A stretch of 64,000 nucleotides of DNA, taken from IMG/VR virus record IMGVR_UViG_3300013108_000188, one strand, 5' to 3'. The stretch is from a virus. The translations under genes and the position numbers were made by a program. This document shows, one piece after another, positions 42,019 through 61,627 of the stretch. The first letter of the stretch is position 1. Every line of letters starts with the position of its first letter. The notes under the pieces are model-generated. The model had not been told where the DNA came from. It made no database searches and worked only from the letters and a program-made list of their open reading frames with translations.

Positions 42019-43081
42019 CTGACTTGTTCTCCTGTTCTGTATGTTTGTCTACTTCGTCCCAATCTTTTTCATCTACGAGTTTTGTACACTCTTCTGATAC
42101 TTTACCAGAAGCATTAGCGTTTTTCTCGCATTCCATTTTAATTTTTATATCTCTTTTTCTTGCTTCTTTTTCTTCTTCTTTTTGTTTAAGATAGTCTTCG
42201 TATGTTTTCTCAACTTTTTCTTCACCTATCTCTACGGTAATTGGTGTTCCGTCATACTTATCTAAAGCGTGACCATCTTCTACATAATCTTTAATTTCTG
42301 GCACTATTGTTTCATCAATTTCCCATAAACCTTTTTTAGCACCTTCATTAATTAAATCTACTACACCTTTTTCTATTGCTTTTCTTACTGCATAGGTAAC
42401 TGGTTCGTTTCTTGCCACTCCCATTTCAATCTCTACTAACATTGTATCTGTATCTAGGTATTTAAATACATCTGCACCTGTTTCGCCTGAAAGTATAGTC
42501 TTTTCAACGGTTGTAGTTATTACTACTTCACCACTTTGTACATTAACTAATCTTAATATAATAGTAACCACATCTTGTCTGTATTGTTTGTGTGCTTGAA
42601 TACCTAATATTCTTGCACCAACACCACCAGATTTAGTATCACTATCATATCCTACTATACCACCTGTGATATATGCACCTGCGAATAGTAATGGTGGTAA
42701 AGGTTCTGCACCTTCACCATTTACTTGTTGTCTTGTAGACCTTATTAATTTTCTCTCTTGTAATAGACTTGGTAGACTTGCTCTTTCAACAACTCTAAAC
42801 CATTTGCCATCACCTGCGTCTTGTAATGCTTTAATTAATAATTGATATGACCCTTGCGTTACCGCTGTACTCATTGACGCAAAAGAACCACCTGGTTTCT
42901 TTTGTCCTGTCATATCTAAAAAATCATACACAGCAATTACTACTGGTTCACCTTTTGGCGAATTAATTTCTGTCAATCCTTTATATGATACCGTTTGAGT
43001 TCTTACATCAAAATCTGATTTTGTACTCGCACAACTACCCAAAAAGAGTGTAAGCAATAACAAAGATATAATTCTTAACAT
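41969..43081 (-). CDS. csgG: curli secretion channel lipoprotein CsgG
   Basis: Lipobox LGSC; AVYDF.D.TGQ.KP, STAVTQG, WFRVVER, ERKLIRS, GGIVGYD, NEPV. Confidence 0.95.
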   Translation of the reverse strand: MLRIISLLLLTLFLGSCASTKSDFDVRTQTVSYKGLTEINSPKGEPVVIAVYDFLDMTGQKKPGGSFASMSTAVTQGSYQLLIKALQDAGDGKWFRVVERASLPSLLQERKLIRSTRQQVNGEGAEPLPPLLFAGAYITGGIVGYDSDTKSGGVGARILGIQAHKQYRQDVVTIILRLVNVQSGEVVITTTVEKTILSGETGADVFKYLDTDTMLVEIEMGVARNEPVTYAVRKAIEKGVVDLINEGAKKGLWEIDETIVPEIKDYVEDGHALDKYDGTPITVEIGEEKVEKTYEDYLKQKEEEKEARKRDIKIKMECEKNANASGKVSEECTKLVDEKDWDEVDKHTEQENKSDEKDSNGNSDSSSDTN

Positions 43082-43089
43082 ATTTTTTC

Positions 43090-43548
43090 CTACGAGTTAT
43101 CTTCTTTAGGTAAAGTATAAGTTGTTACCGTACCATCTGATTCTGTTACCGTTACCACTACATTACCTGTACCTGATGGTGTAGTCCAAGTGACCACTTC
43201 TCCACCAACTGGTGATGTAAATGTACCAGAGTCTTGTTGTAGACCATCTGTACCGAATACATTGTCCGTAATTTGTTTTGCCAGAGCAGTATAGAATCTA
43301 CTCTCTAAATTTGCTTTGAATTTAGCTATAGCAGTTGCCTTTGCGTCTGCTGTTGCTTTATCAGCTGCCGCTTTGTTCGCTGCCTTGATTGCGTCTTTTC
43401 TAGTTTTCTCAATGTTCTCTATTGTTAAATAATGTGAAGACTTTCCTTTACCTGAAAACGAAGGACTATCAAATTCAAATGTTAGTTCGCTTGAGTATGC
43501 ACTAGAGATAAAGACAAGTGTAAGTATAATACTTGTAATGAATCTCAT
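43090..43548 (-). CDS. csgF: curli assembly protein CsgF
   Basis: Signal peptide then ELTFEFDSPSFSG; F..NLESR....L; immediately upstream of csgG. Confidence 0.85.
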   Translation of the reverse strand: MRFITSIILTLVFISSAYSSELTFEFDSPSFSGKGKSSHYLTIENIEKTRKDAIKAANKAAADKATADAKATAIAKFKANLESRFYTALAKQITDNVFGTDGLQQDSGTFTSPVGGEVVTWTTPSGTGNVVVTVTESDGTVTTYTLPKEDNS

Positions 43549-43563
43549 AATTCTCCTAATAAT

Positions 43564-43586
43564 TGCTATAATATTTATAATAAATA
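43564..43586. promoter_or_regulatory. divergent promoter region: late TATAAATA (minus, 43572-43579) for csgF; TGcTATAAT extended -10 and AATAAATA (plus) for the cyclase
   Basis: Motifs read directly in the 55-bp intergenic gap. Confidence 0.55.
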
Positions 43587-43603
43587 GTCAGACGAGAATT
43601 GAT

Positions 43604-45229
43604 ATGAATCAAATATTTACTACAAGATGGTTTGCTTGTCTCACTTTTGTTATACTTCTTGGAATTTACTTGGTAAATCCAGTACTATTACAATCAACTA
43701 GACTAGCAACCTTTGATACTTACCAGAAATTTGGGACTCATTTAGATTCCAAATCTTTAGTCCTATTGGATATTTCAGACAAAGCACTTAAAAAGAACGG
43801 ACAATGGCCTTGGAAAAGAGATACACTTGGTCGCACTATAATTAATGCGTATAAAAATGGTGCCGCTCTAGTAGTATTACAAGTAGTCTTTCCTCATAAA
43901 GATAGACTAGGTGGTGATGAAATGTTTTTAAAGATGATACAAAAATATCCTGTCATACTAACTGAAACAAATGAAGTTAAAAATCTTATCAGTATATCCA
44001 GAAGAGCATTAGCAATAGGTAATGTATCTGTACCTGTTGATATAGATGGTACTATAAGAAAACTACCTCTGGATAAATCAATACCTGAAGTCGTATTAAA
44101 AGTAATAAAATTTCCTACACCTGAAGTAGATAATATTTGGTTAGATTTTAGACATCATATTCCTAGAGTAGATTTTACAGATAAAGATTGGTCATCTATG
44201 AAAGGTAAAATAGTTTTCATAGGTACTACATTTAAAGGTTCTACTTTTGCATTAACTCCAAATGGTTTAAAAAACACACACGAAATTATGGCAGTTAGTA
44301 CAGAAACTTTATTGTCTGGTAAATATATTAGTAGACCACATTGGTTATCTAGTTTAGAATTTTTTTATATAATAATAGGTTGTGTAATACTATTGTTTTT
44401 TATTCCTAAATTAGGTGTATTATCTTCTGCATTAATGTATGCTGGTTACTCTATACCTATCGCACTAGGAAGTATATATCTATGGACACAAAATTTATAT
44501 CTAACTGATTGGTTAAGTCCATTAGTAATAGGTACTTTAGTTTCAGGTCATTTAATATACAATAATTTTGCTAGAGAAAATAGATTGAAACTACAAATTA
44601 AAAAACAATTTGAACATTATCTAGCACCTCAAATGGTTAAAAAATTACAACAAAATCCATCACTATTAAAACTAGGTGGAGAGAGAAAAGAAATGACATT
44701 TTTGTTTTCTGATATAAGAGGTTTTACTCCTATAACTGAATCAATGAAAGGCGAACCAGAAAAGGTTGCTAAGTATGTTAATAAGTTTCTTACTGCAATG
44801 ACAAGTATAATACTTAAAAATGGTGGCACTATTGATAAGTATATGGGTGATTGTATAATGGCATTTTGGAATGCACCACTTGATAATCCAGAACATAAAA
44901 GACTAGCAATATTATCTGCGTATCAAATGAGAAGAACCGTTAGAGAAATGAATAAGAGTGGAGAGTTTAACCCACCTTTAAATATTGGTATAGGTATCAA
45001 TACAGGCGATTGTCTTGTAGGTAATATGGGTAGTGAACAAAGGTTTGACTATTCTGTTATCGGTGACGCTGTTAATCTTGCAAGTAGATTAGAAGGTCAA
45101 AGTAAAGAATTCAATACAACTATTGTAATATCAGAAAATAGTATCGCTGGAGATTTGCCGTTCTATAAACTTGGTAAAGTTAAAGTAAAAGGTAAAGAAG
45201 AAAAGATTAATTGTTATTCTATTAAGTAA
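43604..45229 (+). CDS. CHASE2-domain class III adenylate cyclase
   Basis: GQWPWKR CHASE2 motif, 1+3 TMs, LKLGGE, FSDIRGFT, IDKYMGDCIMAFWNAP, GIGINTG, FDYSVIGDAVNLASRLE; start reassigned to MNQIF. Confidence 0.93.
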   Translation: MNQIFTTRWFACLTFVILLGIYLVNPVLLQSTRLATFDTYQKFGTHLDSKSLVLLDISDKALKKNGQWPWKRDTLGRTIINAYKNGAALVVLQVVFPHKDRLGGDEMFLKMIQKYPVILTETNEVKNLISISRRALAIGNVSVPVDIDGTIRKLPLDKSIPEVVLKVIKFPTPEVDNIWLDFRHHIPRVDFTDKDWSSMKGKIVFIGTTFKGSTFALTPNGLKNTHEIMAVSTETLLSGKYISRPHWLSSLEFFYIIIGCVILLFFIPKLGVLSSALMYAGYSIPIALGSIYLWTQNLYLTDWLSPLVIGTLVSGHLIYNNFARENRLKLQIKKQFEHYLAPQMVKKLQQNPSLLKLGGERKEMTFLFSDIRGFTPITESMKGEPEKVAKYVNKFLTAMTSIILKNGGTIDKYMGDCIMAFWNAPLDNPEHKRLAILSAYQMRRTVREMNKSGEFNPPLNIGIGINTGDCLVGNMGSEQRFDYSVIGDAVNLASRLEGQSKEFNTTIVISENSIAGDLPFYKLGKVKVKGKEEKINCYSIK

Positions 45230-47279: not shown

Positions 47280-47975
47280 CTATGGTTTCCTATCTTTTAG
47301 ATTCTGTTTAAATTTCTTATCGAATCTTTTAATTTTTCTATCCAAAACTTTAGCTTTAAGTCTGATAGAAATTTCTTTTTTTAAAGTTGGATCTGTTTGA
47401 GAAACTAATCCTACAGACCTCATTGTTCTATGTCTACCTTTAGGTGGTGTATCACCTAGAGCAGCAATAGGGTGCATTGCACCATAACTTCCACTACCTA
47501 TATTAAAAGCACCAAATTCTTTTAACCCAGCTTTTTCTAATACAGATTTCTTAACAGGTTCTTCTACAAATTCTATTTCATTTTTCCCATAAGATTTTTC
47601 ATCTACTATAACATCTATCTTATCCATTTGGTCTAGTATCTGATTTAAAAGAACACTATTAGTTTCTTTGTTTTCTTTGACCGTAGTACCAAGTCTTGTC
47701 ATAATTTCTTTTTTCTTTTTCTTATCTTGTACTGCGTCTGGTGGCATAGATACACCACCTCCTGCAACTGAATTAACAGGTGCGTCTTCTATTTGAAAAC
47801 CTAATTTCTTTTTTTCTTTTTCATAAGCGTCTGCGTCTGCTTTAGTATGAAATATAACCTGTACGGTATTTTGACCTGGTCTTTTCATCCGTACTATATA
47901 TTTACCACCGACAACTTTCGCTTCGTTCTTCTTATCTTTTAAGTACTTCATCAATATCTCTTTAACTGATGGCAT
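47280..47975 (-). CDS. hypothetical protein, possibly internal head protein
   Basis: IE-DAPVNS processing-like motif. Confidence 0.55.
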   Translation of the reverse strand: MPSVKEILMKYLKDKKNEAKVVGGKYIVRMKRPGQNTVQVIFHTKADADAYEKEKKKLGFQIEDAPVNSVAGGGVSMPPDAVQDKKKKKEIMTRLGTTVKENKETNSVLLNQILDQMDKIDVIVDEKSYGKNEIEFVEEPVKKSVLEKAGLKEFGAFNIGSGSYGAMHPIAALGDTPPKGRHRTMRSVGLVSQTDPTLKKEISIRLKAKVLDRKIKRFDKKFKQNLKDRKP

Positions 47976-48537
47976 TTAAATAATCTCCTGGGACTAATCG
48001 TCCATTTATATTATATATGTCCATACCTAACGCTGTAGTATATGGTTTCGTGTCCTCGTTGCATTGTACTATCGTTCCTTTCGGAAGAAAGTTATCTCCA
48101 TCAAATAAGTCGGACTTCAAATCATACTTACCTGATTTTAAAACTCTTTCATTAAAGTATTCTTCATTAAGAGTTTCAGTATAGTTAAATTCATCTATAC
48201 TTTTTAAATATTTATAGCAAGTTCGTTCTATATTCTTACCGTGTTCACTATAAAAATCTTTATCTTCTTTTAAAAGTAATCCTAATGCAACTGCAAAAGA
48301 ACCTAACTTACTACCTAGACCAACTTTACCTAGTATTCGTTTCATATTAAATACGAATCTATGCAACATAGTATAAGATGATTTTTCTTTACTAGTTTTT
48401 AATAGTCTATACGGTTTTAGCACTTTACCTTTATCGTCTATAATACCTGTCTTAAACGCTTCGTGGTTTTTAAATGGAGTAACCAATAATTTAATTACTC
48501 TATATGCTATTAATAAGTCTACTGCTCTACTTGCCAT
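47962..48537 (-). CDS. conserved T4-like marine phage protein
   Basis: D...YR.IKLLVTPF....A...GIID..G motif. Confidence 0.7.
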   Translation of the reverse strand: MASRAVDLLIAYRVIKLLVTPFKNHEAFKTGIIDDKGKVLKPYRLLKTSKEKSSYTMLHRFVFNMKRILGKVGLGSKLGSFAVALGLLLKEDKDFYSEHGKNIERTCYKYLKSIDEFNYTETLNEEYFNERVLKSGKYDLKSDLFDGDNFLPKGTIVQCNEDTKPYTTALGMDIYNINGRLVPGDYLNAIS

Positions 48538-48899
48538 TATAAGTTCCTTAATTCTAATTTAATGTATTCGTCTTCCGTCAGATTTTCAAGTTCTTTCGGA
48601 TACAAATAGTTTAAATAACTAAAAACAGACTTTAGTAAAGGCCAATACTTCGTGTCGTTTTTATATAACAACAAAGTAATACAGGCATCCACTCCAAAGA
48701 CATTTTGTAGTACGACAATATGATTGATAACAAGTCTTATCTTTACTTCACCTGTTAATTCATATTTCCGAAACAATCTTTTGATGTATTTAAATCGCTT
48801 AATATCATCCCAAAATTCTTTTTCAGTTTCAAAAGTTGGATTATCATAATGCTTTTGAGCATATAATAACCAATTATCTTCGGTTATCTGTTTGAACAT
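48537..48899 (-). CDS. conserved T4-like marine phage protein
   Basis: YA.KHYDNP...EF.DD.KRFKYIKRL..Y, RL..NH...L.NVF. Confidence 0.75.
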   Translation of the reverse strand: MFKQITEDNWLLYAQKHYDNPTFETEKEFWDDIKRFKYIKRLFRKYELTGEVKIRLVINHIVVLQNVFGVDACITLLLYKNDTKYWPLLKSVFSYLNYLYPKELENLTEDEYIKLELRNL

Positions 48900-48905
48900 T
48901 ATTGT

Positions 48906-49337
48906 CTACACTAATTTAGCGTAAACCTTTGATGAACCGTTAGACAATGTTTCGTATTTTACTTCTAATTTTAAATTATCAATACCAGGTCCATTATCTA
49001 CTACCACATCTTCAGGTTTAGTATCAGTTGTTTTTCCGTAAGTACCACCGAATTGTTTTACTTCACCAGTTACCGTTCCAGAAGTTCCTTCTAATTTCAT
49101 AGGACTAATATCTAATCCTATTCTCATTAGATTTTCTCTTAATTTGTCAACTGCAAATTGTGGTTTAATGTATTCCATATTTCCTACACTACCAACAAAA
49201 GCATTAACTCTATCTAAAACTCTTTGGTCTTTTAAATTCGCCGTACCTAAAGAACCGTCTTCAACTGCGTTTGAAGTTTGTACATTGACAGCACTTGCTG
49301 ACTTGTCTTCCTTTAAGTGTTCTCTAAAAGTTTTCAT
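48906..49337 (-). CDS. probable virion protein with capsid-targeting-like N-terminus
   Basis: MKTFREHLKE start. Confidence 0.6.
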   Translation of the reverse strand: MKTFREHLKEDKSASAVNVQTSNAVEDGSLGTANLKDQRVLDRVNAFVGSVGNMEYIKPQFAVDKLRENLMRIGLDISPMKLEGTSGTVTGEVKQFGGTYGKTTDTKPEDVVVDNGPGIDNLKLEVKYETLSNGSSKVYAKLV

Positions 49338-49439
49338 TTTTTCTCCTCTTTATCATTTATAGTTTGATTTGATTCTTCCTTATTTGGTTGAACCAAATCT
49401 TCCTCAAATTCTTCTAACTCTTTATCCGAGTTATCTATG

Positions 49440-49682
49440 TTATTTTTTATCTTCTCCATCTTCTTTTCCTTTAAGTTCTTGGTTAGCTTCCCTTAAAGTC
49501 AAATCGCTATCTGCTTTTCGCAAAAATTTTTCACAAACTTGTACTGCACCGTGTAAGGCATTTAGTTGTGATTTCGCACTTGCTAAATCTGTTTCTAATT
49601 TATTTACACTTTCAGTTAAAGCAGCTCGTTCTTTGTATAATTGATTAAATTCTTTCTCAATTATTGCTAATGATATTGCCAT
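49440..49682 (-). CDS. small coiled-coil protein
   Basis: AGGAG RBS; heptads. Confidence 0.6.
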   Translation of the reverse strand: MAISLAIIEKEFNQLYKERAALTESVNKLETDLASAKSQLNALHGAVQVCEKFLRKADSDLTLREANQELKGKEDGEDKK

Positions 49683-49706
49683 TATAAACTCCTATAATAA
49701 TATTAA

Positions 49707-50156
49707 TTATGCTACTGCGTATCCGTGACCAGCGATTATATTCCATTTACTATTTTTGAATAATAATGTAACCGATTCTCCTTCTGCATTAAGAGTAATA
49801 GTTGAGTGTCCTCTTAAATTAGTTGGTGTGATTACGCAATTGTTTGCTCCAGTACCAATAGTTATTAATGTTTTAATTTGTCCATCAGAACCATCTGCTA
49901 GTGTTAATGCTGTTGCACCACCACTTTGGTCTACTTCTGATATTGCTGAGGTAACATTAGCCGCTGTACTAGATGAAGTTAATGCTTCACTAGCTTGGCC
50001 TAGTCCTATAAAACTAGGTATGTTATTGAAAACATTTTTTGCTGTTACCTTTTTATTTATTGGTGTGTTTGAAGGATCGTCAACAATGTGAAACAAATCC
50101 ACATCTGCTAACGCTGTGCCCAGGTCATCCAGGGCGGTGATTTTTTTGTCTGCCAT
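49707..50156 (-). CDS. probable virion structural protein
   Basis: MADKKITAL start; beta-rich; late promoter upstream. Confidence 0.6.
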   Translation of the reverse strand: MADKKITALDDLGTALADVDLFHIVDDPSNTPINKKVTAKNVFNNIPSFIGLGQASEALTSSSTAANVTSAISEVDQSGGATALTLADGSDGQIKTLITIGTGANNCVITPTNLRGHSTITLNAEGESVTLLFKNSKWNIIAGHGYAVA

Positions 50157-50222
50157 TTTTTTCTCCTATAATTCCGATTTAACGGTAAACTACTCCGTAC
50201 ATCATATACGGACCATCTATAC

Positions 50223-50230
50223 TATTTATA
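50223..50230 (-). promoter_or_regulatory. T4-type late promoter
   Basis: TATAAATA. Confidence 0.7.
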
Positions 50231-50235
50231 CAAAT

Positions 50236-50262
50236 AAAAAAGGGGACCATAAGGTCCCCTTT
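50236..50262 (-). terminator. rho-independent terminator
   Basis: AGGGGACC/GGTCCCCT stem followed by a U6 run. Confidence 0.85.
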
Positions 50263-50293
50263 GATATTATTACTAGATTTTGTTAGTTATCTA

Positions 50294-50878
50294 TTAACTT
50301 CCAACCGTAATAGTTCCAGCAGCTGATCCAACACCTGCTGAGATAGTTCTTACTGCGTTTCCGCCACCGATAGCATCCACTATTGTTGCGCCATTCAAAT
50401 TAATTGATTGAGCAGCAATTGATATTACATCATTTGCATTAACATTAGCGTTTGTAGCAGTTGCTGAAAAAGAAAGTGTATCTCTTGTTCCTGCACCACC
50501 ATCCATCGTTAAAGTAATTGAGGAAGCTCCTCCACTACCTGCTTGGTCATTAGAAACATACATTAGAGGCGAACCACCTGCAATTGTAACCTGTTCATTA
50601 AAGTGAACCTCTACCGTAATAGTTGATCCACCTGCACCTGAAATTGTTTGTCCAACTGCAAAGTTCACAGCGTCAATAGTTGCTTGTCCTAATTGTGTTG
50701 CTAAATCACCAATAGCGACTAATACTTCTGGAGTTGCGTTTGCGTTATCGTTTCCTGACGCTGCCGTACCCGCTTGTTGAACCCAACCACTTGAATTAGC
50801 ATAGACTTCTTTTTTCTGTGCTGCTGTTAGATTCTTTGGTTTCGACTCGTCATTTGTGTCTGCTCCCCATAGTCCCAT
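50294..50878 (-). CDS. probable virion structural/decoration protein
   Basis: MGLWG..D.SKPK, GWV, EVLVA motifs; Ala/Gly/Thr-rich Ig-like part; own terminator. Confidence 0.65.
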   Translation of the reverse strand: MGLWGADTNDESKPKNLTAAQKKEVYANSSGWVQQAGTAASGNDNANATPEVLVAIGDLATQLGQATIDAVNFAVGQTISGAGGSTITVEVHFNEQVTIAGGSPLMYVSNDQAGSGGASSITLTMDGGAGTRDTLSFSATATNANVNANDVISIAAQSINLNGATIVDAIGGGNAVRTISAGVGSAAGTITVGS

Positions 50879-50942
50879 AATAGTCTCCTTATTAAATTTA
50901 ATTAATTAAACTTGATTAATCTGTTATATTTATGAATAATGA

Positions 50943-51542
50943 TTATTTGAAACCTAGTTTTCTCAATTCAGATATTGTATTACTAGTGCTTGTATGATGA
51001 ATACCTATACCACCTCTCGCTCTAAACTGCGATATATTCTTTATATAGTCATCAATTAGTATTGTAGGCATACCTCCAACCTTAGCAAAATTTTGTTTCT
51101 CTCTTCGTTTTACTAGGTTAACTTTATTGCCTGACATACCTAATCTTGTTCTTGCCCATTTTGATTTACCTGGTATACAATTAGGGTCAGTAGTTTGTTC
51201 TACATAAGCAGATAAAATATGTGGATCATATTTTCTTATAAACGACCATAGTCTTTGACCACCTGGCGCCCAAGGTAATGTAGACCAGAAGTTTTTAGTC
51301 TGCATTATTGGTTTCCACTTATCTCTTATTGATTTGAATTTCTTTCCAGGTTCTTTTGCCCATTGAGACATAGGCATACCTACTGCTTTTTCAGCAGCTT
51401 TTTCAAAATTACATACTACTCCATCCATATCACAATATATTCTAGGTAGTTTATCTCTTAAACCATCCCTTCTATACTCGTGGATATTCTCTAGTTTGTT
51501 TCTTTGATGGATTACATCCTGTCGGAGTTCTTTATATTTCAT
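50943..51542 (-). CDS. HAD-family 5'(3')-deoxyribonucleotidase
   Basis: YCDMDGV, ILSA, GK..W, ILIDD..KN...F...GG.GI.H. Confidence 0.85.
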   Translation of the reverse strand: MKYKELRQDVIHQRNKLENIHEYRRDGLRDKLPRIYCDMDGVVCNFEKAAEKAVGMPMSQWAKEPGKKFKSIRDKWKPIMQTKNFWSTLPWAPGGQRLWSFIRKYDPHILSAYVEQTTDPNCIPGKSKWARTRLGMSGNKVNLVKRREKQNFAKVGGMPTILIDDYIKNISQFRARGGIGIHHTSTSNTISELRKLGFK

Positions 51543-51554
51543 AGTTTTTCTTTT

Positions 51555-51583
51555 ATTATAACACTTTCCCCACTTAAAGTCAA
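51555..51583 (-). promoter_or_regulatory. sigma70-type early promoter
   Basis: TTGACT-17-TATAAT. Confidence 0.75.
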
Positions 51584-51592
51584 GCAAAAAAA

Positions 51593-54580
51593 CTATGCGT
51601 GATAATCTATTCTTGGATTTACATCAATCTTGTCAGATTTTGTACCGTTATCAGTTTTTTTCTTTTCAGGTTCTTTTGTTTGTATATTCATAGGGTCAGT
51701 CTTTTGGGTAGGTTCCTGGGACTTCGGTAATATATCTGTATTATTATCACTTTCTTTCTTTGCTTTTTTAGCAACTAAAGTTTCCCATTTCTTTTTAGCA
51801 GGATGATTTTTATTTTCTATACCAAGTTTCTTTTTAGTTTGATTAGTTGCAACAGCATATCTTACACTATCACCTTTCTTCTTACCATACTGGTCTCTAA
51901 AAGATTTCTTTGGTAGTTCATCAGCTTTCTTATGTACTTTTTTAACTTGCGATTTTGTTAAGTCAGATTCAACTGCTCTTTTAGGTCTAATTCTAATTTC
52001 TTTTAATTTTTTACCACCTTCAGGTTCTTTTTCTGCAACTCTATATCCAAATCTATATTTTGGTTTTCTACTTCTAGCAAAACTACCTTGTCTTGTAGAT
52101 GTATTAGCACCACCTCTTTCATCAAGTTCTTTTTCTTCTTGTTTCTTTTCTTTTGGAATCTTATTATCTTTATCTGGCACACAATTAGGTACTTGTTTTC
52201 CACCTTTGTTTTTCATACCAACCTTTGTATATCCGTCCCAACACGCTTCACCTATTTCTTTATCTTCGTTGGCAGTTTTTAATGCTCTTGCAATAGTAGA
52301 TACTTTAGATAAATCTTTAGCAATCTTTTCTATTTCTCTTACTGCACCACTATAATTACCATCACTCTTTACAGCAATTTTCATTGCCTTTGCAACTTTA
52401 TCAGGACCATATCTTATAGGGTCAGGTGTTGCTTCTTGTAATTTGTTTCTTAAAGATTTAAATGTTTCTTTAACAATTGCTATTTTTTTAGTCTTTCTTA
52501 AATCACCAGTTTTATACCACTTAATAAATTTTTCTGCTTCTGCTTTAGTTTTATATGTACCGTGTATAAATTTACCACCATCCATTTTAGTTATCTGTAC
52601 AGAAAACGCTTCGTTTTGATTCATTAATGAATAGTAACCTGTTTGATTACCATACATCTTTTTAAATGTAGCAGGTTCTTTTTTCGCAATTAAGTCCATT
52701 ACATATTCTCTTGGAGAAGTATCACTAGCTTTTAAATGCTTTTTCAACTCAGCATATTTTTTAGCTTTTAATAAGTCAACAGACTTTTGGAACATCTGTT
52801 TATCCATACCACCTTTTGCTACTTTCTTTTGTAATTCAACAGCAGCATTTTCTTCTAATTCGTTTTCTTCTTTAGGTACACAATTTGGTACTTCTTTACC
52901 ATCTTTCTTTTTCATACCTATCATTTCATAATCTTTCCAACAAGGGTCTTTCTTGTCTTCTCCAACATCTTTTATTAAAAGTGTTTTAATACCTGCGTCA
53001 GATTTTAATCCAACTTCATCTTTGTATCTTCGTATTGCTTCTTTTTCATTTTTGCCTTCAACTTCCCAAGTCTTTTTACTAGGGTGTGAAACTCTATAAA
53101 CTTGTACACTTTCTTTAACTTCGTCTTTTTCTTTATCTGCTTTATCTTTTAAAAGTTTATGTGCTAAACCAACCGTTAAAGGTACTTCACCTGTCTCTTT
53201 GTTAGGCATTGGTTTAACTGCTTTGTTCTTTTCGTTTTCTAATTTTGTTCTTAACTGATTAATTTGACCTTGAGCAGCGATTAATTGTTTTTCTAAAGTG
53301 TCTGTATCTTTTTCTTTTGCAAGTTTAATTTTATCAACATCTTTTTCTTTAGTTTCTGTTGATGTTTTATCTTTCATAGCTTCAATAGATTTTTTAGGTT
53401 CTTCTTTCTCCTCAACTACACCAGTTTTACCTGTTCTTAATTTAGCATCCACAGGTGGATTGTATCTTCCCATTTTATCTATAGTGAAACCTTTTTTTCT
53501 TAACTTCTGTGCTTTGTTTTGAATATCTGATAAACTATCTCCACCTTCAAATCCATAATGTTTTCCATACTGACTATATGAAATCATATATGGTTGGATT
53601 TTTTCTTCTATTGGAGTTCTTTCGCCTGAAGTTTCTACTCCTGCAATGTTCCAAGCACTATCGTCCTGTTCTTTTGTTAGTACTCTTACATCATCGCCAT
53701 ACTTAGCAACAACTTGTTTGTGGATACTTTCTACATCTTTCGCACTATCAATTCTAACTTCTGAACCATCTGCGTTAGCTTCTCCACCACCAGTTTTACC
53801 TTTAAACATATTAGCAATAGCTTTTGCTTGACTAGAATTCTTTGCCATATATTCTATGTACTCAGCATACTCTACAAACAACCACTCTTTGTTTTCAGTT
53901 TTTAAATGAGACCTAGTTGCCAATTGCATATCTAAAATCTTTTTCATATTACCTGATAGTTCAATACCATCTGGAATATCTTTTACTTTTAATCCGTGTT
54001 GTTTCGCCAAAGAAACCATATTATCTTTTTCTTTTTTATTAGCGAAACCTCTAATAGTTCCTTTACCTTCTTCTACTTGTACAGCAGCATTAGCATTTTT
54101 TTCTTTAGTTGATTCTGTTAATTGTTCCCAAGTTTGTTCTTTAAAGGAAGATAATCTAACTCCTTTAGGTACTTGTATACCTTTCTTAATCATACGACTT
54201 AATGCCATAGTAGAAAGGAATGGAATATCTGCTTTGTATAATTTTGGTAGTTGTGAATTTGTTATCTTGTCAAAGATATTTCTTAATTGGTTTGCTCTCG
54301 CAAGTGAAATCTTAGCACCTTTTAAACTAGCGTAATCTTGTTTAAGTTTAGCAATTTGTCCATCTGAAAATTCCCACAACATTGCTTCAGCAATGTCTTC
54401 TTCTCCAAGTATAGTTTTAACCGTTGAGAGAGGTAGTTTCATTTTCTTTGCTATTTCGCTTGCTGATTTACCGTCAGCGAACATAGTAGCGATAGTTTTC
54501 ATCTTGCCTTCGTCCAATGTTATATCATTAGCCCAGACTTCTTCCATTGCCTCTCGCATTGATTTTGTATATCTTGTCAT
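51593..54580 (-). CDS. large Lys/Glu-rich modular protein, probable processed internal head protein
   Basis: 995 aa; many hydrophobic-x-E sites; duplicated CW..Y...GMK.K.GK.VPNCVP module. Confidence 0.6.
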   Translation of the reverse strand: MTRYTKSMREAMEEVWANDITLDEGKMKTIATMFADGKSASEIAKKMKLPLSTVKTILGEEDIAEAMLWEFSDGQIAKLKQDYASLKGAKISLARANQLRNIFDKITNSQLPKLYKADIPFLSTMALSRMIKKGIQVPKGVRLSSFKEQTWEQLTESTKEKNANAAVQVEEGKGTIRGFANKKEKDNMVSLAKQHGLKVKDIPDGIELSGNMKKILDMQLATRSHLKTENKEWLFVEYAEYIEYMAKNSSQAKAIANMFKGKTGGGEANADGSEVRIDSAKDVESIHKQVVAKYGDDVRVLTKEQDDSAWNIAGVETSGERTPIEEKIQPYMISYSQYGKHYGFEGGDSLSDIQNKAQKLRKKGFTIDKMGRYNPPVDAKLRTGKTGVVEEKEEPKKSIEAMKDKTSTETKEKDVDKIKLAKEKDTDTLEKQLIAAQGQINQLRTKLENEKNKAVKPMPNKETGEVPLTVGLAHKLLKDKADKEKDEVKESVQVYRVSHPSKKTWEVEGKNEKEAIRRYKDEVGLKSDAGIKTLLIKDVGEDKKDPCWKDYEMIGMKKKDGKEVPNCVPKEENELEENAAVELQKKVAKGGMDKQMFQKSVDLLKAKKYAELKKHLKASDTSPREYVMDLIAKKEPATFKKMYGNQTGYYSLMNQNEAFSVQITKMDGGKFIHGTYKTKAEAEKFIKWYKTGDLRKTKKIAIVKETFKSLRNKLQEATPDPIRYGPDKVAKAMKIAVKSDGNYSGAVREIEKIAKDLSKVSTIARALKTANEDKEIGEACWDGYTKVGMKNKGGKQVPNCVPDKDNKIPKEKKQEEKELDERGGANTSTRQGSFARSRKPKYRFGYRVAEKEPEGGKKLKEIRIRPKRAVESDLTKSQVKKVHKKADELPKKSFRDQYGKKKGDSVRYAVATNQTKKKLGIENKNHPAKKKWETLVAKKAKKESDNNTDILPKSQEPTQKTDPMNIQTKEPEKKKTDNGTKSDKIDVNPRIDYHA

Positions 54581-54585
54581 ATTAT

Positions 54586-56724
54586 TTAATCCCCTTGCGA
54601 ATTATTAAATTGTTTGAAAGATTGAACCTTTAAGCGTTCTTCCATCTTATTCGTTGCTTCTTCTAGTTCTTTCTCCCAATCTTCTCCGTATCTTGTCTTA
54701 TATTTATCAATAGTCTCACTTGAAGCAGCCCAATTCTTTATGTCTTCTTTGTCTATTTTTTCTGCCGATTGTTCTGCTCTCGTCTTACTATCTACTGGTT
54801 TCTCACTTGGCGTCTCTCCAGGTGTAATTTCTTTAGTATGATTAGCGTAATCTTTGCCTATTTCATACGATTCTTCTCGTTTTTTTATATCTTCATATGT
54901 CTTCTGTTTATTCATTTTGACTTCCGTTTCCGATACTGCTTCAAAACCATAATCAACATCTAGGTTGTGTTCGTGTAGTTTAACTTCATCTACATTACTA
55001 ACTGGTAGACAATTCCATATCCAACATTTGTGTAAGTTAGATTCTTTATCTTCTAGTACAATATAGTTTGTACTTCTACGGATTACTTTACCTGTTACCT
55101 CTTGTATGGTATCATTTACAATATCATTTGTGTTAAATAATTGTTCACGGATATACAAGTCTCTAATTTGCCATTGAGTAAATCTTTCTACGATTACTTT
55201 TTTCTTTGCTGTAGGATTAATATCAGCACTTGGAGCGTATGTTCCAAGTCCTGCACCTGTTGTATTTTCTAGGTTCATTCCTTTTCTTACTAATTTAAAT
55301 AGTCCATCTTTATCTCTATATGATACAGGTAGACCTCTTTTAAAACTTTGTAAATCGTTTTTGCTAGCGGCGTCTCGCATTTTACTTGCTGACATTCCCA
55401 TAGCTCCTTCAGCGTCTGGATCTCTTTCACCAGCACTTACTACATTAATTTTATCAAACTTGTAATTAGTTCCTCTTGCTTTTACTCCGTTATATTTTTT
55501 TAGAAGAGTATCAAATTCTCTTACTCGGTCACTTCCTACGACCATAGTTATTTGATTTGCTTTTCCATTTAGATTATTTAAAACTTCCATTGCTGTTCTA
55601 GCACCTGGGATTTGTTTTATCTTTGATGAGTGTCTAGGAAACATCTGTTTCATTATTCTCAACTTGTCAGTAATCTTTAATGGGTTTTTCTTTGCGTCTG
55701 TTGTTTTAGTAGGTATGATTAAGTAATCATTAGCACTAACACTTGCCACTTTATTAATAAGTTTTTCGTGTCCTATTGTAGGTGGATTAAATCTACCAAA
55801 TGTAAATGCTATATGTTTTTTAGGTGAACCTACTGCTTCTTTAAGACTATCAATTTCGGCGTCTGTAACCTTGCCGTCATCTAAAATCTTTTTACATTTC
55901 TTATAAAATTTTAAGTAGTGATATTTTTCTAACATCTTATAGATTACATTTTTAGGTAATCTATTTTTAATACCATACTTTCTAATTTCATCTGGCGACA
56001 TATCTTTATCAAACGCTGCTCTTCTATCTGCGTCAACATCATCGCCTATTTTTATTATGTCCTTTATACTATCTTCTATCTCTTTAAGTTTCTTTTCTAT
56101 TTTACTTTGTAAGTTTTCTATATCGTTAGGACCTAATTCTTTTAATTCGTCATAGTCAATTATATCTCTTTTTAATTCTCCTTTGACTACATCTAATTCT
56201 TGTACTTTTCTATTGAAGTCTTTGATATAATCATTTACATTGAAAACAAAATCTGCTGGTCTCTTTATAAATTTATTTTTTCTTATATCAAAACTTGCGT
56301 CTGCCTTTTCTTGTTGGTCATCATATATTTTTGGATCCGCTATCATAAAATAGTTAATCGGATGCTTCGTACCTGGTATTAATTTACCTTGTACATTTTT
56401 TGGATTAGATGAAGATATAAACTTCATAACTAATCTTTCTCTTTCTGCTGGTCTATCTTTATCTTCAGGTATATCAAACAATACATTGATGTCCAAGTCT
56501 GCGTCATCACGGTATCTCTTTGTTAAGATAGAACCAATTAATCCTATTTTAATTACAGGATATTCTTTTGCAAAAACTTTTATTTGGTCTTCTATTTGTT
56601 TAACAACACTCGGTTTAAGTTTTGGATTCTTTGTATCAGCGTCATCAAATACACCAGGAGCATATGTTCGTCTTGGTATATCTATGATACTTTCTTTTAT
56701 AAAATTTTTAAATCTACTTAACAT
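54586..56724 (-). CDS. fusion: Pol-beta-type nucleotidyltransferase + HxGH cytidylyltransferase-like domain
   Basis: IGSIL...DADLDINV; FTFGRFNPPTIGHEKL, MVVGSDRV, SASKMR. Confidence 0.8.
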   Translation of the reverse strand: MLSRFKNFIKESIIDIPRRTYAPGVFDDADTKNPKLKPSVVKQIEDQIKVFAKEYPVIKIGLIGSILTKRYRDDADLDINVLFDIPEDKDRPAERERLVMKFISSSNPKNVQGKLIPGTKHPINYFMIADPKIYDDQQEKADASFDIRKNKFIKRPADFVFNVNDYIKDFNRKVQELDVVKGELKRDIIDYDELKELGPNDIENLQSKIEKKLKEIEDSIKDIIKIGDDVDADRRAAFDKDMSPDEIRKYGIKNRLPKNVIYKMLEKYHYLKFYKKCKKILDDGKVTDAEIDSLKEAVGSPKKHIAFTFGRFNPPTIGHEKLINKVASVSANDYLIIPTKTTDAKKNPLKITDKLRIMKQMFPRHSSKIKQIPGARTAMEVLNNLNGKANQITMVVGSDRVREFDTLLKKYNGVKARGTNYKFDKINVVSAGERDPDAEGAMGMSASKMRDAASKNDLQSFKRGLPVSYRDKDGLFKLVRKGMNLENTTGAGLGTYAPSADINPTAKKKVIVERFTQWQIRDLYIREQLFNTNDIVNDTIQEVTGKVIRRSTNYIVLEDKESNLHKCWIWNCLPVSNVDEVKLHEHNLDVDYGFEAVSETEVKMNKQKTYEDIKKREESYEIGKDYANHTKEITPGETPSEKPVDSKTRAEQSAEKIDKEDIKNWAASSETIDKYKTRYGEDWEKELEEATNKMEERLKVQSFKQFNNSQGD

Positions 56725-57553
56725 TAAGTCCTCGTTGTTTTATAAGATTCATAAATGCTTTTGGGTCTTGTTGTTTTAATTTAAATAAAAATGGATTTGC
56801 ACTATAAGGATTTGTCATATCTTTTCTAGCTTTAATATCTTTGTCAAGTTGTTTAATAGCATCCGCTGTAAGTTTTGCTAATGCTGTTTGTTTTTTAGTA
56901 TCTAATTGTATTTGCATCCATCTTTTTGCTACTATACTTCTAACAGGTGCTCTTACTAATCCTCTAACTCTACCCCATAATTTATTTAATATATCTTCAT
57001 TTGCATTATTATTATCTACTACAATAAAATTACTTCTACCAAAAGAAGTTTGAAATTTTCCAATATTATTTTGTACGGTTTGCCAACTCTTTCTAGTAAT
57101 ATCTTCTGGCACTCTTCTAGTTCTAGTTCTATTTCTTTCTAACGCAACTTCTAAACTTGTATTAACAAATATCATATAGCAATCATAACCTAACATTTGT
57201 AGTAATGATTTCTGTCTACTGATAATACTATAATCTCTTCCTGTTGCGTCAATAACAAGACCTAATCTACCTTGAATATATAAATCCATTTGGTCGCCTG
57301 TAACCTTTTTTGCTTTTGCTCTTAATGGGTCTCTTAAAGCAGCTTCTTTATCAGGCATTTTTAAACTTAATCCTGCCTTTGTTAAATATCTTTCAAATCT
57401 TGTATCTGAATTAACTAACTTCAAACCCATACCACCAGTTGACCTGTTGGTTACATAAGTCTTACCACTACCAGGTCCACCTGCAAGGAAAAATGCCTTG
57501 AATATACCTGGGTCATAAACGCCTTCTTGTATTACTTGTTTAAATAATTTCAT
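56714..57553 (-). CDS. P-loop kinase (zeta-toxin/PNK-like)
   Basis: FLAGGPGSGKT, VNSD, VIDATG, ALERN..R.R. Confidence 0.8.
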   Translation of the reverse strand: MKLFKQVIQEGVYDPGIFKAFFLAGGPGSGKTYVTNRSTGGMGLKLVNSDTRFERYLTKAGLSLKMPDKEAALRDPLRAKAKKVTGDQMDLYIQGRLGLVIDATGRDYSIISRQKSLLQMLGYDCYMIFVNTSLEVALERNRTRTRRVPEDITRKSWQTVQNNIGKFQTSFGRSNFIVVDNNNANEDILNKLWGRVRGLVRAPVRSIVAKRWMQIQLDTKKQTALAKLTADAIKQLDKDIKARKDMTNPYSANPFLFKLKQQDPKAFMNLIKQRGLNVK

Positions 57554-57840
57554 ACTTTATAAAAAGTGTACTTTAATGTTAACTCTTCTCCCTTTTTAAT
57601 ATCTCTTAATGTTTGTAGATACCATTTATTATCTACTTCAATCTTTTGACAATTTGGTTTCTCACTATGATTAATAAAACCTCCTAATGGAGTTCTATAC
57701 AATTCTCTTCCAATTTTGATATGACTTATACCTAAATCATCCATCTTGTCAAACTTTTTTGTAGCAAATAAACCTTGTTCGTGTATTTTGCTATCTTGTA
57801 TTCTTAATCCATCTGGTAATGGTTTATATTTTTCCATCAA
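57550..57840 (-). CDS. SET-domain methyltransferase
   Basis: S.IH..GLFA, GFINHSEKPNC, RDIKKGEELTLKY. Confidence 0.85.
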   Translation of the reverse strand: MMEKYKPLPDGLRIQDSKIHEQGLFATKKFDKMDDLGISHIKIGRELYRTPLGGFINHSEKPNCQKIEVDNKWYLQTLRDIKKGEELTLKYTFYKV

Positions 57841-58423
57841 TCTCTTTCATTATATCTTTAGCTATATCTCCTGCTTCTTTTCCTTCTGCTTTGATAGAAA
57901 TAAAACCAGGTTTCTTTCTAAAGTGGTCTATCGCTGGACCAGTTTCTTTTTTATAGAGAGCAATCCTATCTGATATAATCTTTGGTGTATCATCTTTTCT
58001 TCCTCTCTTTGATAATCTTCTAATCACTTCTTCTTTTGAAACATCTAGGAATACAACTACATCATAACCAATTCCTTCTCGTTCCATATCTCTAACTTGT
58101 TGCATATATCTAGGATAGCCATCCATAATATAACCTTTTTTAGCGTCAGGTTCTAATAATGCTTCCTTAATAAGTTTTAAAACTATTTCGTTTGGTGCAA
58201 ATTGTCCTTTATCTAATAAGTTTTTAATTTTTTCTGCTTCTGCACCACCTTTATCTATCTCTTTTCTTAATAGACCACCTGGATAAATATGTTTTATTCC
58301 ATATCGTCTAATCAAATATTCTGAATAGGTTGACTTACCACTTCCAGGTCCACCCATAATAATAATTCTTGTTTGTTTGTCTTCAAGTAATTGTTGTTCG
58401 TAAAAATTTCTAAATGTTTTCAT
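57824..58423 (-). CDS. adk: adenylate kinase family protein
   Basis: GGPGSGKST, G.LLRKEI, DGYPR..QV, RLSKRGRKDD. Confidence 0.88.
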   Translation of the reverse strand: MKTFRNFYEQQLLEDKQTRIIIMGGPGSGKSTYSEYLIRRYGIKHIYPGGLLRKEIDKGGAEAEKIKNLLDKGQFAPNEIVLKLIKEALLEPDAKKGYIMDGYPRYMQQVRDMEREGIGYDVVVFLDVSKEEVIRRLSKRGRKDDTPKIISDRIALYKKETGPAIDHFRKKPGFISIKAEGKEAGDIAKDIMKEIDGKI

Positions 58424-58558
58424 TTATTCTCCATTAAACTCATCTTCGTTAAAAGGTCGTTTCCCACAACTACAATCATCACATACACACACGCCATATT
58501 CATCTGCGTGTAGTTCTTCGTTGCAATGACAATCGTGGTGACAATTTTTACACTTCAT
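58424..58558 (-). CDS. metallothionein-like Cys/His-rich peptide (44 aa, not in ORF track)
   Basis: Manual translation MKCKNCHHDCHCNEELHADEYGVCVCDDCSCGKRPFNEDEFNGE; exactly fills the gap between two genes. Confidence 0.7.
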   Translation of the reverse strand: MKCKNCHHDCHCNEELHADEYGVCVCDDCSCGKRPFNEDEFNGE

Positions 58559-58842
58559 TAACTTTTAACCTTACTACTTGCTCTCCATTGATAACAACTC
58601 CAGTATCTTGCTTTCCATTTAGGTCCTGGATTATCACAATTATGTCTTGCTCTAAATGACGCTCTTCTGTCTTCGCTATCTCTTTTAATTTCCATATTAG
58701 GATCGCCAAAAGTTACCTTAACTACTTTACCTGATCCGTTCTTAACATAAACACCAAACTTTTTTGAATTGCCTGAAGGCAATCTAAAAGGTTTATTTAA
58801 TGTCTTTTTTACTTCTGCTGATTTTTCTTCGTATGTTTTCAT
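58558..58842 (-). CDS. small basic protein (DUF6321-like)
   Basis: KKF.VYVK..G.V.KV.FG, RR.SF.ARH.C, ARYWSC; start MKTYEE. Confidence 0.7.
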   Translation of the reverse strand: MKTYEEKSAEVKKTLNKPFRLPSGNSKKFGVYVKNGSGKVVKVTFGDPNMEIKRDSEDRRASFRARHNCDNPGPKWKARYWSCYQWRASSKVKS

Positions 58843-60059
58843 TATCCTTTTACCCAATCTTTAGCGATAGTAAAGTTTGCTCTACTAAATTCTAATCTAT
58901 CTACTAACTTAACTACATTACCTATTCTATCAGTAGCAACAAATCCTTCTGGTGCTGTAACCTTATAACCACTATTAGTTCTAATAAAATGTCCAACACT
59001 TTGTATCTGTGCTAACTTCTGTAATAATATATTCTTACAATTTTGTAATGTTATATAACTTGCTATTGCCATATATAATGCTCTACTATTTCTATCTATA
59101 AACTTTAAATTTATTTCTTTTGCCTGTTTATATTTTGCTTTACCTTTTTCAGTTTTCTTACTATCTATTTCTGCGTCTATAAAGTTTTCGTAATAACTTC
59201 TAAAATTCTGTTGTAGTACTTTAACACTACCTATTGTACCTCTACTATTTCTTATAATAGAATTGAAATAACTTTTTAATCTAAACCCTACTGATAATTG
59301 GTCTCTACTATCAAACTCATTTAATAATGGAGCAGCTTTTCCTAAACTACCTTCTGCCATTCTTAACATTGCATTAAATCTAGCAATCTCACCTTTACTA
59401 AAACTAGCACTACCACTAGCGTCTTTATATTGTGCCGATGGTATCCATACTGACCCACTTTTAACACCTCTTACATATCCATAAGACGCACTTAAACTAT
59501 CCATAGTCTTACCACTATAAGATGTATGAAAAACTATTCCCATTCTTGCTCTTGCAATTTGTCTTCCCACAGGACTATCAACTGGCATTGCATATGTAAT
59601 TGTATTAGGAGTAAAAGTAATCATACTTTGTCCATCTATACTTGTAATTTTTTTATCTTCTCCTGTGAACAAACAATCACCTTGTAGTATTCCTCTAATA
59701 CCAAGTTTCTTTAGTTCTCTTAAAGCAACTTGTAATTTAGAACCAACACCACCTGGATGATTTCTTGCTATGTCTGCTGAAGTGTAATTTATTTTAGGAG
59801 TTTTATTGAATACAGATTTGGTGCCGACAAAGAATTTGCCATTTTCAGGATTGATTCCACATATAATAGCAGGTGCACCATCCCACTTAACGGTTACATT
59901 AACTTTCTTGCTAGTGCTAGCAGATAACATCTGTCGCAAAGATTTTAAAAACGCTATAGCGTTTCTGCCACCTGTGGCACCGTCATTTATTATACTATCT
60001 TCTAAATGCTCTAGGTGTGTATTTGTTCCCGAGCTAGAATATCCTTTAAAACTAAACAT
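58842..60059 (-). CDS. conserved T4-like protein (DUF6267-like) with ligase-type KxDG motif
   Basis: NTHLEHLED, TVKWDGAPA, QGD, F.PNTITY, PEGFV, KLVDRLEFS. Confidence 0.75.
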   Translation of the reverse strand: MFSFKGYSSSGTNTHLEHLEDSIINDGATGGRNAIAFLKSLRQMLSASTSKKVNVTVKWDGAPAIICGINPENGKFFVGTKSVFNKTPKINYTSADIARNHPGGVGSKLQVALRELKKLGIRGILQGDCLFTGEDKKITSIDGQSMITFTPNTITYAMPVDSPVGRQIARARMGIVFHTSYSGKTMDSLSASYGYVRGVKSGSVWIPSAQYKDASGSASFSKGEIARFNAMLRMAEGSLGKAAPLLNEFDSRDQLSVGFRLKSYFNSIIRNSRGTIGSVKVLQQNFRSYYENFIDAEIDSKKTEKGKAKYKQAKEINLKFIDRNSRALYMAIASYITLQNCKNILLQKLAQIQSVGHFIRTNSGYKVTAPEGFVATDRIGNVVKLVDRLEFSRANFTIAKDWVKG

Positions 60060-60126
60060 TTGTTCCCTTCATTTTATCCATACACAAATAAACTATCCAT
60101 CTATATACTATTCACTTCGTCTCTTA

Positions 60127-60134
60127 TATTTATA
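60127..60134 (-). promoter_or_regulatory. T4-type late promoter for the 51.6-60 kb operon
   Basis: TATAAATA. Confidence 0.7.
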
Positions 60135-61543: not shown

Positions 61544-61551
61544 TATTTATA
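61544..61551 (-). promoter_or_regulatory. T4-type late promoter abutting the tRNA CCA end
   Basis: TATAAATA. Confidence 0.65.
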
Positions 61552-61627
61552 TGGTGCCCTTTACTGGACTTGAACCAATAACCTACTGATTACAAATCAG
61601 TTGCTCTACCAATTGAGCTAAAAGGGC
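61552..61627 (-). tRNA. tRNA-Thr(UGU)
   Basis: GCCCTTTTAGCTCAATTGGTAGAGCAACTGATTTGTAATCAGTAGGTTATTGGTTCAAGTCCAGTAAAGGGCACCA, 76 nt cloverleaf with encoded CCA. Confidence 0.97.

Follow-up and report, generated by a model that had tools for sequence, protein, structure and literature searches.

T4-like capsid-targeting leaders as a predicted head-loading signal on enzymes of an uncultured marine phage

Which of its own proteins does a marine T4-like phage carry in its head, and can they be recognised from their first residues? The question arises at positions 47280 to 60134 of IMG/VR virus record IMGVR_UViG_3300013108_000188, a stretch of 64,000 nucleotides referred to here as the window, where several unrelated enzymes begin with a similar short leader. 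An original prediction, made from the sequence alone, regarded this range as a single late operon of enzymes whose leaders mark them, as in the internal proteins (IPs) of T4, for packaging and delivery with the DNA, ahead of any phage transcription. Our analysis upholds the core of this proposal for four proteins, namely, a short-type adenylate kinase (Adk), a P-loop kinase, a nucleotidyltransferase (NTase) fused to a cytidylyltransferase-like domain, and the small acidic protein p143. Judged from their sequences, these four leaders rather likely do the work of the T4 capsid-targeting sequence (CTS), loading the proteins into the head, and, by analogy with T4, the particle probably contains the tagged proteins and delivers them together with the DNA.

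According to passages of PMC9026906, the propeptides of T4 IPs comprise 10-19 residues, the first 10 of IPIII being enough for head loading; residues 4 and 7 of the CTS matter in targeting and residues 8 and 10 in processing, and the protease gp21 cuts C-terminal to Glu. The pattern used here requires an aromatic residue at position 4, a hydrophobic one at 7, L/I/V at 8 and Glu at 10, with an L-x-E further along, of the kind found in T4 IPI, as an alternative; this regular expression was defined once the data had been seen, but it was anchored on the published T4 determinants and calibrated on T4. In that genome it recovers IPII and IPIII (MKTYQEFIAE) and, with a later cleavage site, IPI (MKTFKEFTSTTTPVSTITE/A; here and below, the slash marks the boundary after the leader Glu), and it also yields gp61.1 (MKTFKEFIKE), with few other matches among ~270 open reading frames (ORFs).

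Four proteins of the window, all encoded on the minus strand like every feature of the region described below, carry such a leader. Adk (57824..58423, start 58423) begins with the 14-residue MKTFRNFYEQQLLE/D (codons 58382-58423), with F4/F7 and LLE at 12-14, and the P-loop kinase of 279 residues (56714..57553, start 57553) with MKLFKQVIQE/G (codons 57524-57553; F4/V7, IQE). The 712-residue NTase-cytidylyltransferase (54586..56724, start 56724) starts with MLSRFKNFIKE/S (codons 56692-56724), in which the pattern is shifted by one residue (F5/F8, IKE), and the 14-kDa, 143-residue p143 (48906..49337, start 49337) with MKTFREHLKE/D (codons 49308-49337; F4/H7, LKE). The targeting positions, aromatic at 4 and hydrophobic or aromatic at 7, are present in all four leaders, as is the L/I/V-x-Glu processing site, at 8-10 or within ~20 residues, its Glu being invariant in orthologues. 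Four matches at true gene starts compare with an expectation of 0.31 derived from windows internal to the same proteins (P ~3e-4), and none of 2000 rounds of shuffled N-termini reached four. Inside the region, 4 of 17 genes bear the pattern, versus 0 of 88 outside it (Fisher 5e-4). Although non-random, the pattern is a feature of four proteins and not of the whole operon.

The seven N-termini on which the original prediction rested are all encoded on the minus strand where it placed them, and four of them, those just described, share the leader. The fit is partial for p94 (MKTYEEKSAE, start 58842) and p995 (MTRYTKSMRE/A, start 54580) and weak for the DUF6267 protein (MFSFKGY, start 60059), in which just the two aromatic positions match and a Glu site is lacking. 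Nor does the leader run throughout the range: a SET-domain protein, a 44-residue Cys-rich protein and an NT5C-like nucleotidase have no tag at their N-terminus.

Adk is a conventional short-type kinase. PF00406 matches residues 22-171 with 129.7 bits against a cut-off of 26.8 (1.3e-37), the P-loop reads GGPGSGK, and the best PDB matches are AK1-type kinases (6e-33). Its leader lies outside this fold, since residue 2 of E. coli Adk aligns at residue 19 and the alignment of AK1-type kinases begins at residue 16; cellular Adk indeed lacks the segment, as had been supposed. In an AlphaFold2 model, the leader helix has a predicted local distance difference test (pLDDT) score of ~51, versus more than 80 for most of the core. 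Across nine orthologues from IMG/VR contigs, the body has a mean column identity of 86%, while the leader has just two invariant residues, F4 and E14, and is shortened in one clade by a four-residue deletion (MVQTFVNFLKE/A). An intact N-terminus is present in 119 of the 120 database homologues closest to this Adk (55-96% identity, often on 100-170 kb contigs), and all 119 keep M-x2-3-aromatic-x2-hydrophobic and then Glu before the conserved core, in leaders as diverse as MDTFKQYLFNYLNE, MKSFRDFIFE, MRTFRELYE and MKSFYDFIYPIQEEE, among others.

In the near homologues of the other tagged proteins, too, the leader is conserved as a pattern and not as a sequence. The P-loop kinase, assigned with Pfam and PHROG, is matched by AAA_33/zeta-toxin profiles and weakly by polynucleotide-kinase profiles, and comparison with PDB sequences gave no match. 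Its leader is kept in IMG/VR relatives, in HTVC008M (MIPFILKE/G), in Methylophilales phage Melnitz (MKTFAELQE/G), and in the Ralstonia jumbo phage RsoM2USA (MTTFKEYLLE/G), where identity over the kinase is 32%. The NTase-cytidylyltransferase joins a Pol-beta-type NTase (PF01909) to an HxGH cytidylyltransferase-like domain (PF01467, 29.4 bits against a cut-off of 21) with the motif FGRFNPPTIGH, read in the translation; it matches phrog_395 (3.6e-66), and a weak phrog_3462 match likewise suggests an NMNAT-like cytidylyltransferase. Its C-terminal half is orthologous to SSM1_190 of cyanophage S-SM1 (blastp 4.6e-58) and to gp154 of cyanophage S-CREM2 (2.7e-28), a cytidylyltransferase considered NMNAT-like by the S-CREM2 authors (PMC10665884). 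All 81 homologues of the same architecture have an aromatic-bearing leader ending in Glu directly before [SA][IV]IDxPR, the leader length being 6, 9, 10, 11, 12, 14 or 17 residues. In the p143 family, M[KR]TF[KR][EQ]H[LIV][KT]E is nearly constant in 120 homologues, and the spacer behind it is hypervariable, both in its length and in its sequence; the homologue of HTVC008M begins with MKSFKDFQNVNE, and an identical p143 is encoded on a 173-kb contig. As far as these alignments tell, the leaders have been added outside the catalytic fold and are subject to selection of their own.

With regard to the two partial tags, p94 (58558..58842), a basic protein of 94 residues matching phrog_7595 and shared with HTVC008M, has relatives in which a longer leader, MKSFKDY..., closes with I/V-x-E ahead of the conserved core. 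The Lys-rich p995 (51593..54580; 995 residues, 111 kDa) measures 616-963 residues in close relatives and contains two copies of a Cys motif (CW.GY...VPNCVP), common to gp160 of S-CREM2, a protein detected in virions.

Two relatives link the pattern to virion proteins. In CsCl-purified particles of S-CREM2, a Kyanoviridae cyanophage, 52 proteins were detected by mass spectrometry, six of which were called non-structural (PMC10665884). When its genome is read for leaders, the enzymes detected in the virions turn out to carry them: the S-adenosylmethionine hydrolase gp6 begins with MKDFDSFLEE, the APH/ChoK-like kinase gp14 with MKRFDAFLTE, and the cytidylyltransferase gp154, itself detected in virions (PMC10665884), with MKNFSSFLTE/A; further starts of this kind are found in gp13 (MKDLHSFLTE), in gp136 (MQTFSMFFSE) and, behind a 17-residue prefix, in gp12 (LRFASFMAE/A). 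The strict pattern occurs in 5 of 218 ORFs, and the products of 4 of these belong to the 52 proteins detected in virions (hypergeometric p ~0.011). In S-SM1, it is borne by only 1 of 229 ORFs, the cytidyltransferase T4-GC190 (MKKFSAFLNE/A), which had been singled out as a cyanophage-core protein detected in virions (Sullivan et al. 2010, PMC3037559). Pooling the two phages, 5 of 6 motif genes are virion-detected, versus about 1 in 5 of all ORFs. The S-CREM2 authors noted that kinases and cytidyltransferases are frequently detected in cyanophage virions (PMC10665884). In the literature searched, the phrase 'capsid targeting sequence' is absent from the text of the S-SM1 and S-CREM2 papers (PMC3037559, PMC10665884), and we found no paper linking the CTS to cyanophages or pelagiphages, the only co-mention being in a T4 review. 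The comparison with virion enzymes of S-CREM2 and S-SM1 and the conserved pattern thus speak for the proposal that the leaders are T4-type CTSs marking virion cargo, though for four of the seven leaders only.

The tagged genes also stand in a late-promoter context. A putative T4-type late promoter, TATAAATA, lies at 60127..60134, 68 nt upstream of the DUF6267 start, placed as the original prediction would have it, and is followed by a block of eight close-packed, partly overlapping genes down to 51593, in the order DUF6267, p94, 44-residue Cys-rich protein, Adk, SET, P-loop kinase, NTase-cytidylyltransferase and p995. Several of these genes are joined by start/stop overlaps such as ATGA or TAATG, the latter where the ATG of p94 overlaps the DUF6267 stop. 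A second TATAAATA at 50223..50230, 67 nt ahead of p149, opens a unit comprising p149, p80, p41, p143, p120, p191 and p231. The plain count of TATAAATA in the window is not above chance (13 versus 15 expected), and only its position relative to genes is informative: 7 of 11 gene-strand copies are intergenic, 8-79 nt before a start codon, whereas the intergenic share of the window is only 9.35%, and the genes served include baseplate, gp2-like and gp32-like ones. From its placement, TATAAATA behaves as expected of a T4-type late promoter, and read-through from upstream is possible. In S-CREM2, where only 12 copies occur in 175 kb, TATAAATA lies 28-30 nt upstream of gp6, of the gp15-gp12 block and of gp154; more generally, the virion-detected motif genes are preceded by TATAAATA or GATAAATA at a distance of 27-30 nt, or form part of the gp15-headed block behind such a promoter, whereas the one undetected motif gene has none.

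A single late operon nevertheless describes the range inexactly. The NT5C-like 5'-deoxynucleotidase (50943..51542; phrog_2643, 1.6e-27) has no tag and is under its own early-type promoter, a sigma-70-type TTGACT-17-TGnTATAAT with extended -10 (51555..51583; 11 of 12 consensus matches). A strong hairpin terminator (50239..50262; 10-bp stem with 6 GC pairs, then a T run) follows, and p143 belongs to the unit opened by the second TATAAATA.

Taken together with T4 biology, these features suggest the following mechanism. The TATAAATA promoters at 60134 and 50230 would drive late transcription of the genes, and the tag (M-K/x-x-aromatic-x-x-hydrophobic, then L/I/V-x-Glu) would bind the scaffolding core of the assembling prohead, so that tagged proteins would be enclosed when the shell forms. 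A prohead protease of the T4 gp21 type (Peptidase_S77) would then cut after Glu and free the mature enzyme inside the head, and the proteins would exit with the DNA at the next infection. The predicted cargo comprises the short-type adenylate kinase; the zeta/AAA_33-like P-loop kinase, substrate unknown; the Pol-beta NTase fused to the NMNAT-like cytidylyltransferase of T4-like cyanophages; the 14-kDa acidic protein; and, possibly, p94 (basic) and p995 (Lys-rich, 111 kDa). It is only by analogy with T4 IPI and Alt that we propose ejection and an enzymatic role early in infection, and the notion of their activity preceding all phage transcription is pure inference. With respect to the protease, HTVC008M, S-CREM2 and S-SM1 each encode one Peptidase_S77 protein, and their major capsid proteins keep L-x-E (FLGE, ILTE and LLTE) at the position of T4 gp23 FLTE/A, which we take to be the cleavage point of gp23.

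The mechanism is the known one of T4; what is new is the cargo and the phage group. Like the T4 IPs, the proteins described here would combine late synthesis, an expected cut after Glu by Peptidase_S77 and one tag on unrelated mature parts, the T4 tag having an aromatic at 4, a hydrophobic at 7-8 and Glu at 10, or a longer form as in IPI. Unlike the T4 IPs of 8-20 kDa, the predicted cargo here consists of large enzymes of 21-81 kDa (perhaps 111); position 7 is not always aromatic, and leader length is more variable. The cyanophage cytidylyltransferase (T4-GC190, phrog_395; S-SM1, S-CREM2 gp154) shares the orthology of the C-terminal half, the leader type and a neighbourhood upstream of primase, but here it is fused behind a Pol-beta-type NTase, so the tag sits on that domain. 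Giant-phage ejection proteins (phiKZ, SPN3US) likewise include many unrelated proteins, enzymes among them, loaded into the head and trimmed after Glu by a prohead protease, in a different phage lineage; their propeptides are long, without a short common N-terminal tag, and their cleavage motif is small residue-x-Glu. T4 Alt, an ADP-ribosyltransferase, travels in the head, undergoes processing by gp21 and is active once delivered, as would by analogy apply to the enzymes of the window. It has no homology to the proteins described here, and differs in being processed at both termini, according to a passage of PMC9026906.

Several points tell against head loading. No Peptidase_S77 prohead protease gene is present in the 64-kb window, nor in the nearest record, an 18-kb fragment (G001). 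Position 7 deviates from the Phe of T4 in two of the four leaders (Val in the kinase, His in p143), the motif definition is partly post hoc, and HTVC008M has no strict pattern match, only looser forms. The Glu of the NTase leader precedes the strongly conserved SIIDIPR and persists internally in an 1181-residue fusion (NLQE/SIIDIPR), and could therefore belong to the fold. In the relatives concerned (L013:10001-13546, plus strand; L011, L014 and L015), kinase, PAP2-like segment and NTase-cytidylyltransferase form a single ORF, the PAP2-type phosphatase motif (PSGH...SR...H..D) having been read by eye only; the L/I-Q-E/S before the NTase may be a polyprotein cut site or a Glu of the fold, and both fit the sequence equally. 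The S-CREM2 authors, moreover, warned that abundant soluble proteins may co-purify with virions (PMC10665884).

Three other explanations of the shared N-terminus were weighed. The tag could target the proteins into the prohead core for a role inside the head (assembly, DNA condensation, charge balance), or for degradation like scaffold, with no working delivery. Proteins of 80 and 111 kDa would need unfolding for tail passage; yet T4 Alt is a 76-kDa protein, and CTS fusions up to the size of beta-galactosidase are packaged and delivered. The mature forms are mostly basic (isoelectric points of 9.4 for Adk, 10.3 for the kinase, 9.5 for p995 and 10.4 for p94), as DNA-contact proteins might be, and passages of PMC9026906 state that T4 IPIII affects head morphogenesis and that most core proteins are cut to small peptides. 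Against this, the catalytic cores are highly conserved, as seen in the column identity of the Adk orthologues with their P-loop kept, which points to selection on enzymatic activity; the peptides from mature S-CREM2 virions are spread over the enzymes, with 11-26% coverage (PMC10665884), which indicates that those enzymes were not degraded; and T4 Alt is ejected and active, and CTS fusions are packaged and delivered, in the relevant passages of PMC9026906. We regard a role confined to the head as unlikely.

It is quite unlikely that the leader is no targeting signal at all, its resemblance to the CTS being a coincidence born of first-codon selection for an AT-rich, unstructured start or of an ordinary N-terminal helix. 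The GC content is 32%, K, F, N, Y and I have AT-rich codons, an MK start is common among phage proteins, the Adk leader is drawn as a helix by AlphaFold2, and the NTase leader Glu is conserved even where it is internal. A codon-bias origin of the motif was, however, rejected in view of its absence from the remaining 88 genes of this AT-rich window, its equal confinement in S-CREM2 and S-SM1, leaders that vary from 6 to 17 residues and yet retain F4, hydrophobic 7 and the terminal Glu, and the prediction of virion detection in two independent proteomes; the lack of the segment in cellular Adk also disagrees with this explanation. Lastly, the tag could be a docking peptide for another partner (chaperone, replication or late-transcription machinery, membrane), detection in virions then reflecting co-purification. 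The block does sit among replication genes, between those of the gp41-like helicase and primase, but we know of no alternative partner for the tag, and T4-type clamp-binding motifs are C-terminal and different in appearance. The motif fits the experimentally defined T4 CTS position by position, co-occurs with late promoters, and in T4 the same pattern picks internal proteins, so that docking elsewhere seems very improbable even with the caveat on co-purification stated by the authors of the S-CREM2 proteome (PMC10665884).

Head loading by a T4-type tag being the preferred explanation, the remaining genes complete the picture of the locus. The window represents an uncultured marine T4-like myophage, in which all genes except two are on the minus strand. 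PHROG and Pfam profiles identified T4-type genes for baseplate/tail proteins, a gp2-like DNA end protector, the gp32 single-strand-binding protein, the gp59 helicase loader, the UvsX recombinase and a gp41-type helicase. The nearest named phage is Pelagibacter phage HTVC008M (Kyanoviridae), with 52% identity for the DUF6267 protein and a common gene order from UvsX and helicase through primase and ribonucleotide reductase; a nucleotide search with the region against a phage collection gave no match.

The first gene of the block codes for the DUF6267 protein (58842..60059; 405 residues; PF19782, 2.9e-123, with the model starting from residue 13; phrog_455), a core protein of T4-like cyanophages (T4-GC71). 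This protein contains a VKWDG stretch reminiscent of motif I (KxDG) in ligases and capping enzymes. No PDB sequence was matched in a profile search, nothing but DUF6267 came up in Pfam with E values allowed up to 5, the Atlas search gave only DUF6267 or unnamed viral clusters, and an AlphaFold2 model built from 8 sequences had a mean pLDDT of 51, too poor for a fold search. An RNA/DNA-ligase-like enzyme is a lead only, its fold being unconfirmed. Inside the same block, the untagged SET-domain protein (57550..57837; 95 residues; PF00856, 1.4e-10) has a start, MEKYKPLPDG, that is conserved among relatives, and the 44-residue Cys/His-rich protein is encoded at 58424..58558.

Several genes of the range code for structural-type virion proteins, and the view of the whole range as an enzyme kit is not sustained. 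This applies to p194 (50294..50878), which has CATAAATA 49 nt upstream and is the homologue of the S-layer-domain protein of HTVC008M and S-SM1 (T4-GC425); T4-GC425 was detected among the S-SM1 virion proteins. As the p194 start (MGLWGAD...) is not CTS-like, it is probably a structural or decoration protein. In the second late unit, p149 (49707..50156) is conserved in HTVC008M and has no tag, while p120 (phrog_407), p191 (phrog_18642) and p231 (47280..48899) are conserved late-unit proteins upstream of the primase region; one p231 relative starts with MLGFKELL.... A near-copy of the CTS opens T4 gp61.1, a 54-residue protein encoded beside primase gene 61 (NC_000866 18966-19130, minus strand). 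Homology of gp61.1 to p231 or to a 359-residue protein of HTVC008M was rejected, local alignment scores falling within the shuffled range.

Further observations concern the surroundings. In RsoM2USA, three consecutive genes, 256-254 (L067:360-2244, plus strand), have CTS-like starts (MKFSDYILE, MNQTFKQFLTE and MTTFKEYLLE), the last belonging to the kinase family of the window. The near-perfect sigma-70 promoter of NT5C stands amid otherwise late-looking units. A tRNA-Thr (anticodon UGU) at 61552-61627 (minus strand) directly precedes a TATAAATA at 61544-61551 (minus strand), which lies 20 nt ahead of a 462-residue protein (phrog_3060), function unknown. One of the only two plus-strand genes, at 43538-45229, codes for 563 residues; there the local GC drops to 0.288 and the GC skew flips sign. 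Just before it, at 38788-43548, are minus-strand genes with signal-peptide-like starts.

As for what the cargo would do, a role in nucleotide pools, in nicotinamide adenine dinucleotide (NAD) salvage or in RNA-end repair is possible in each case, and we hold all three with low confidence at most. More broadly, and only tentatively, the T4 head-loading tag may be conserved across ocean T4-like phages, from Kyanoviridae cyanophages and related pelagiphage and methylophage isolates to distant jumbo relatives, in a lineage shipping a nucleotide-handling kit (adenylate kinase, P-loop kinase and two nucleotidyltransferases) with its DNA. Before phage expression begins, such a kit could replenish adenylate/NAD-type pools or mend RNA in hosts that grow slowly or have activated their defences. 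If the tag works as in T4, such phages would deliver metabolic enzymes, here adenylate kinase, beyond small anti-restriction proteins, and the tag would explain the repeated finding of cytidylyltransferases and kinases in purified cyanophage particles. A ten-residue rule combined with a late promoter would then predict the capsid-travelling proteins of uncultured marine T4-like phages, and, should the tag be conserved across those of the ocean, their capsid cargo would be readable directly from genome sequence.

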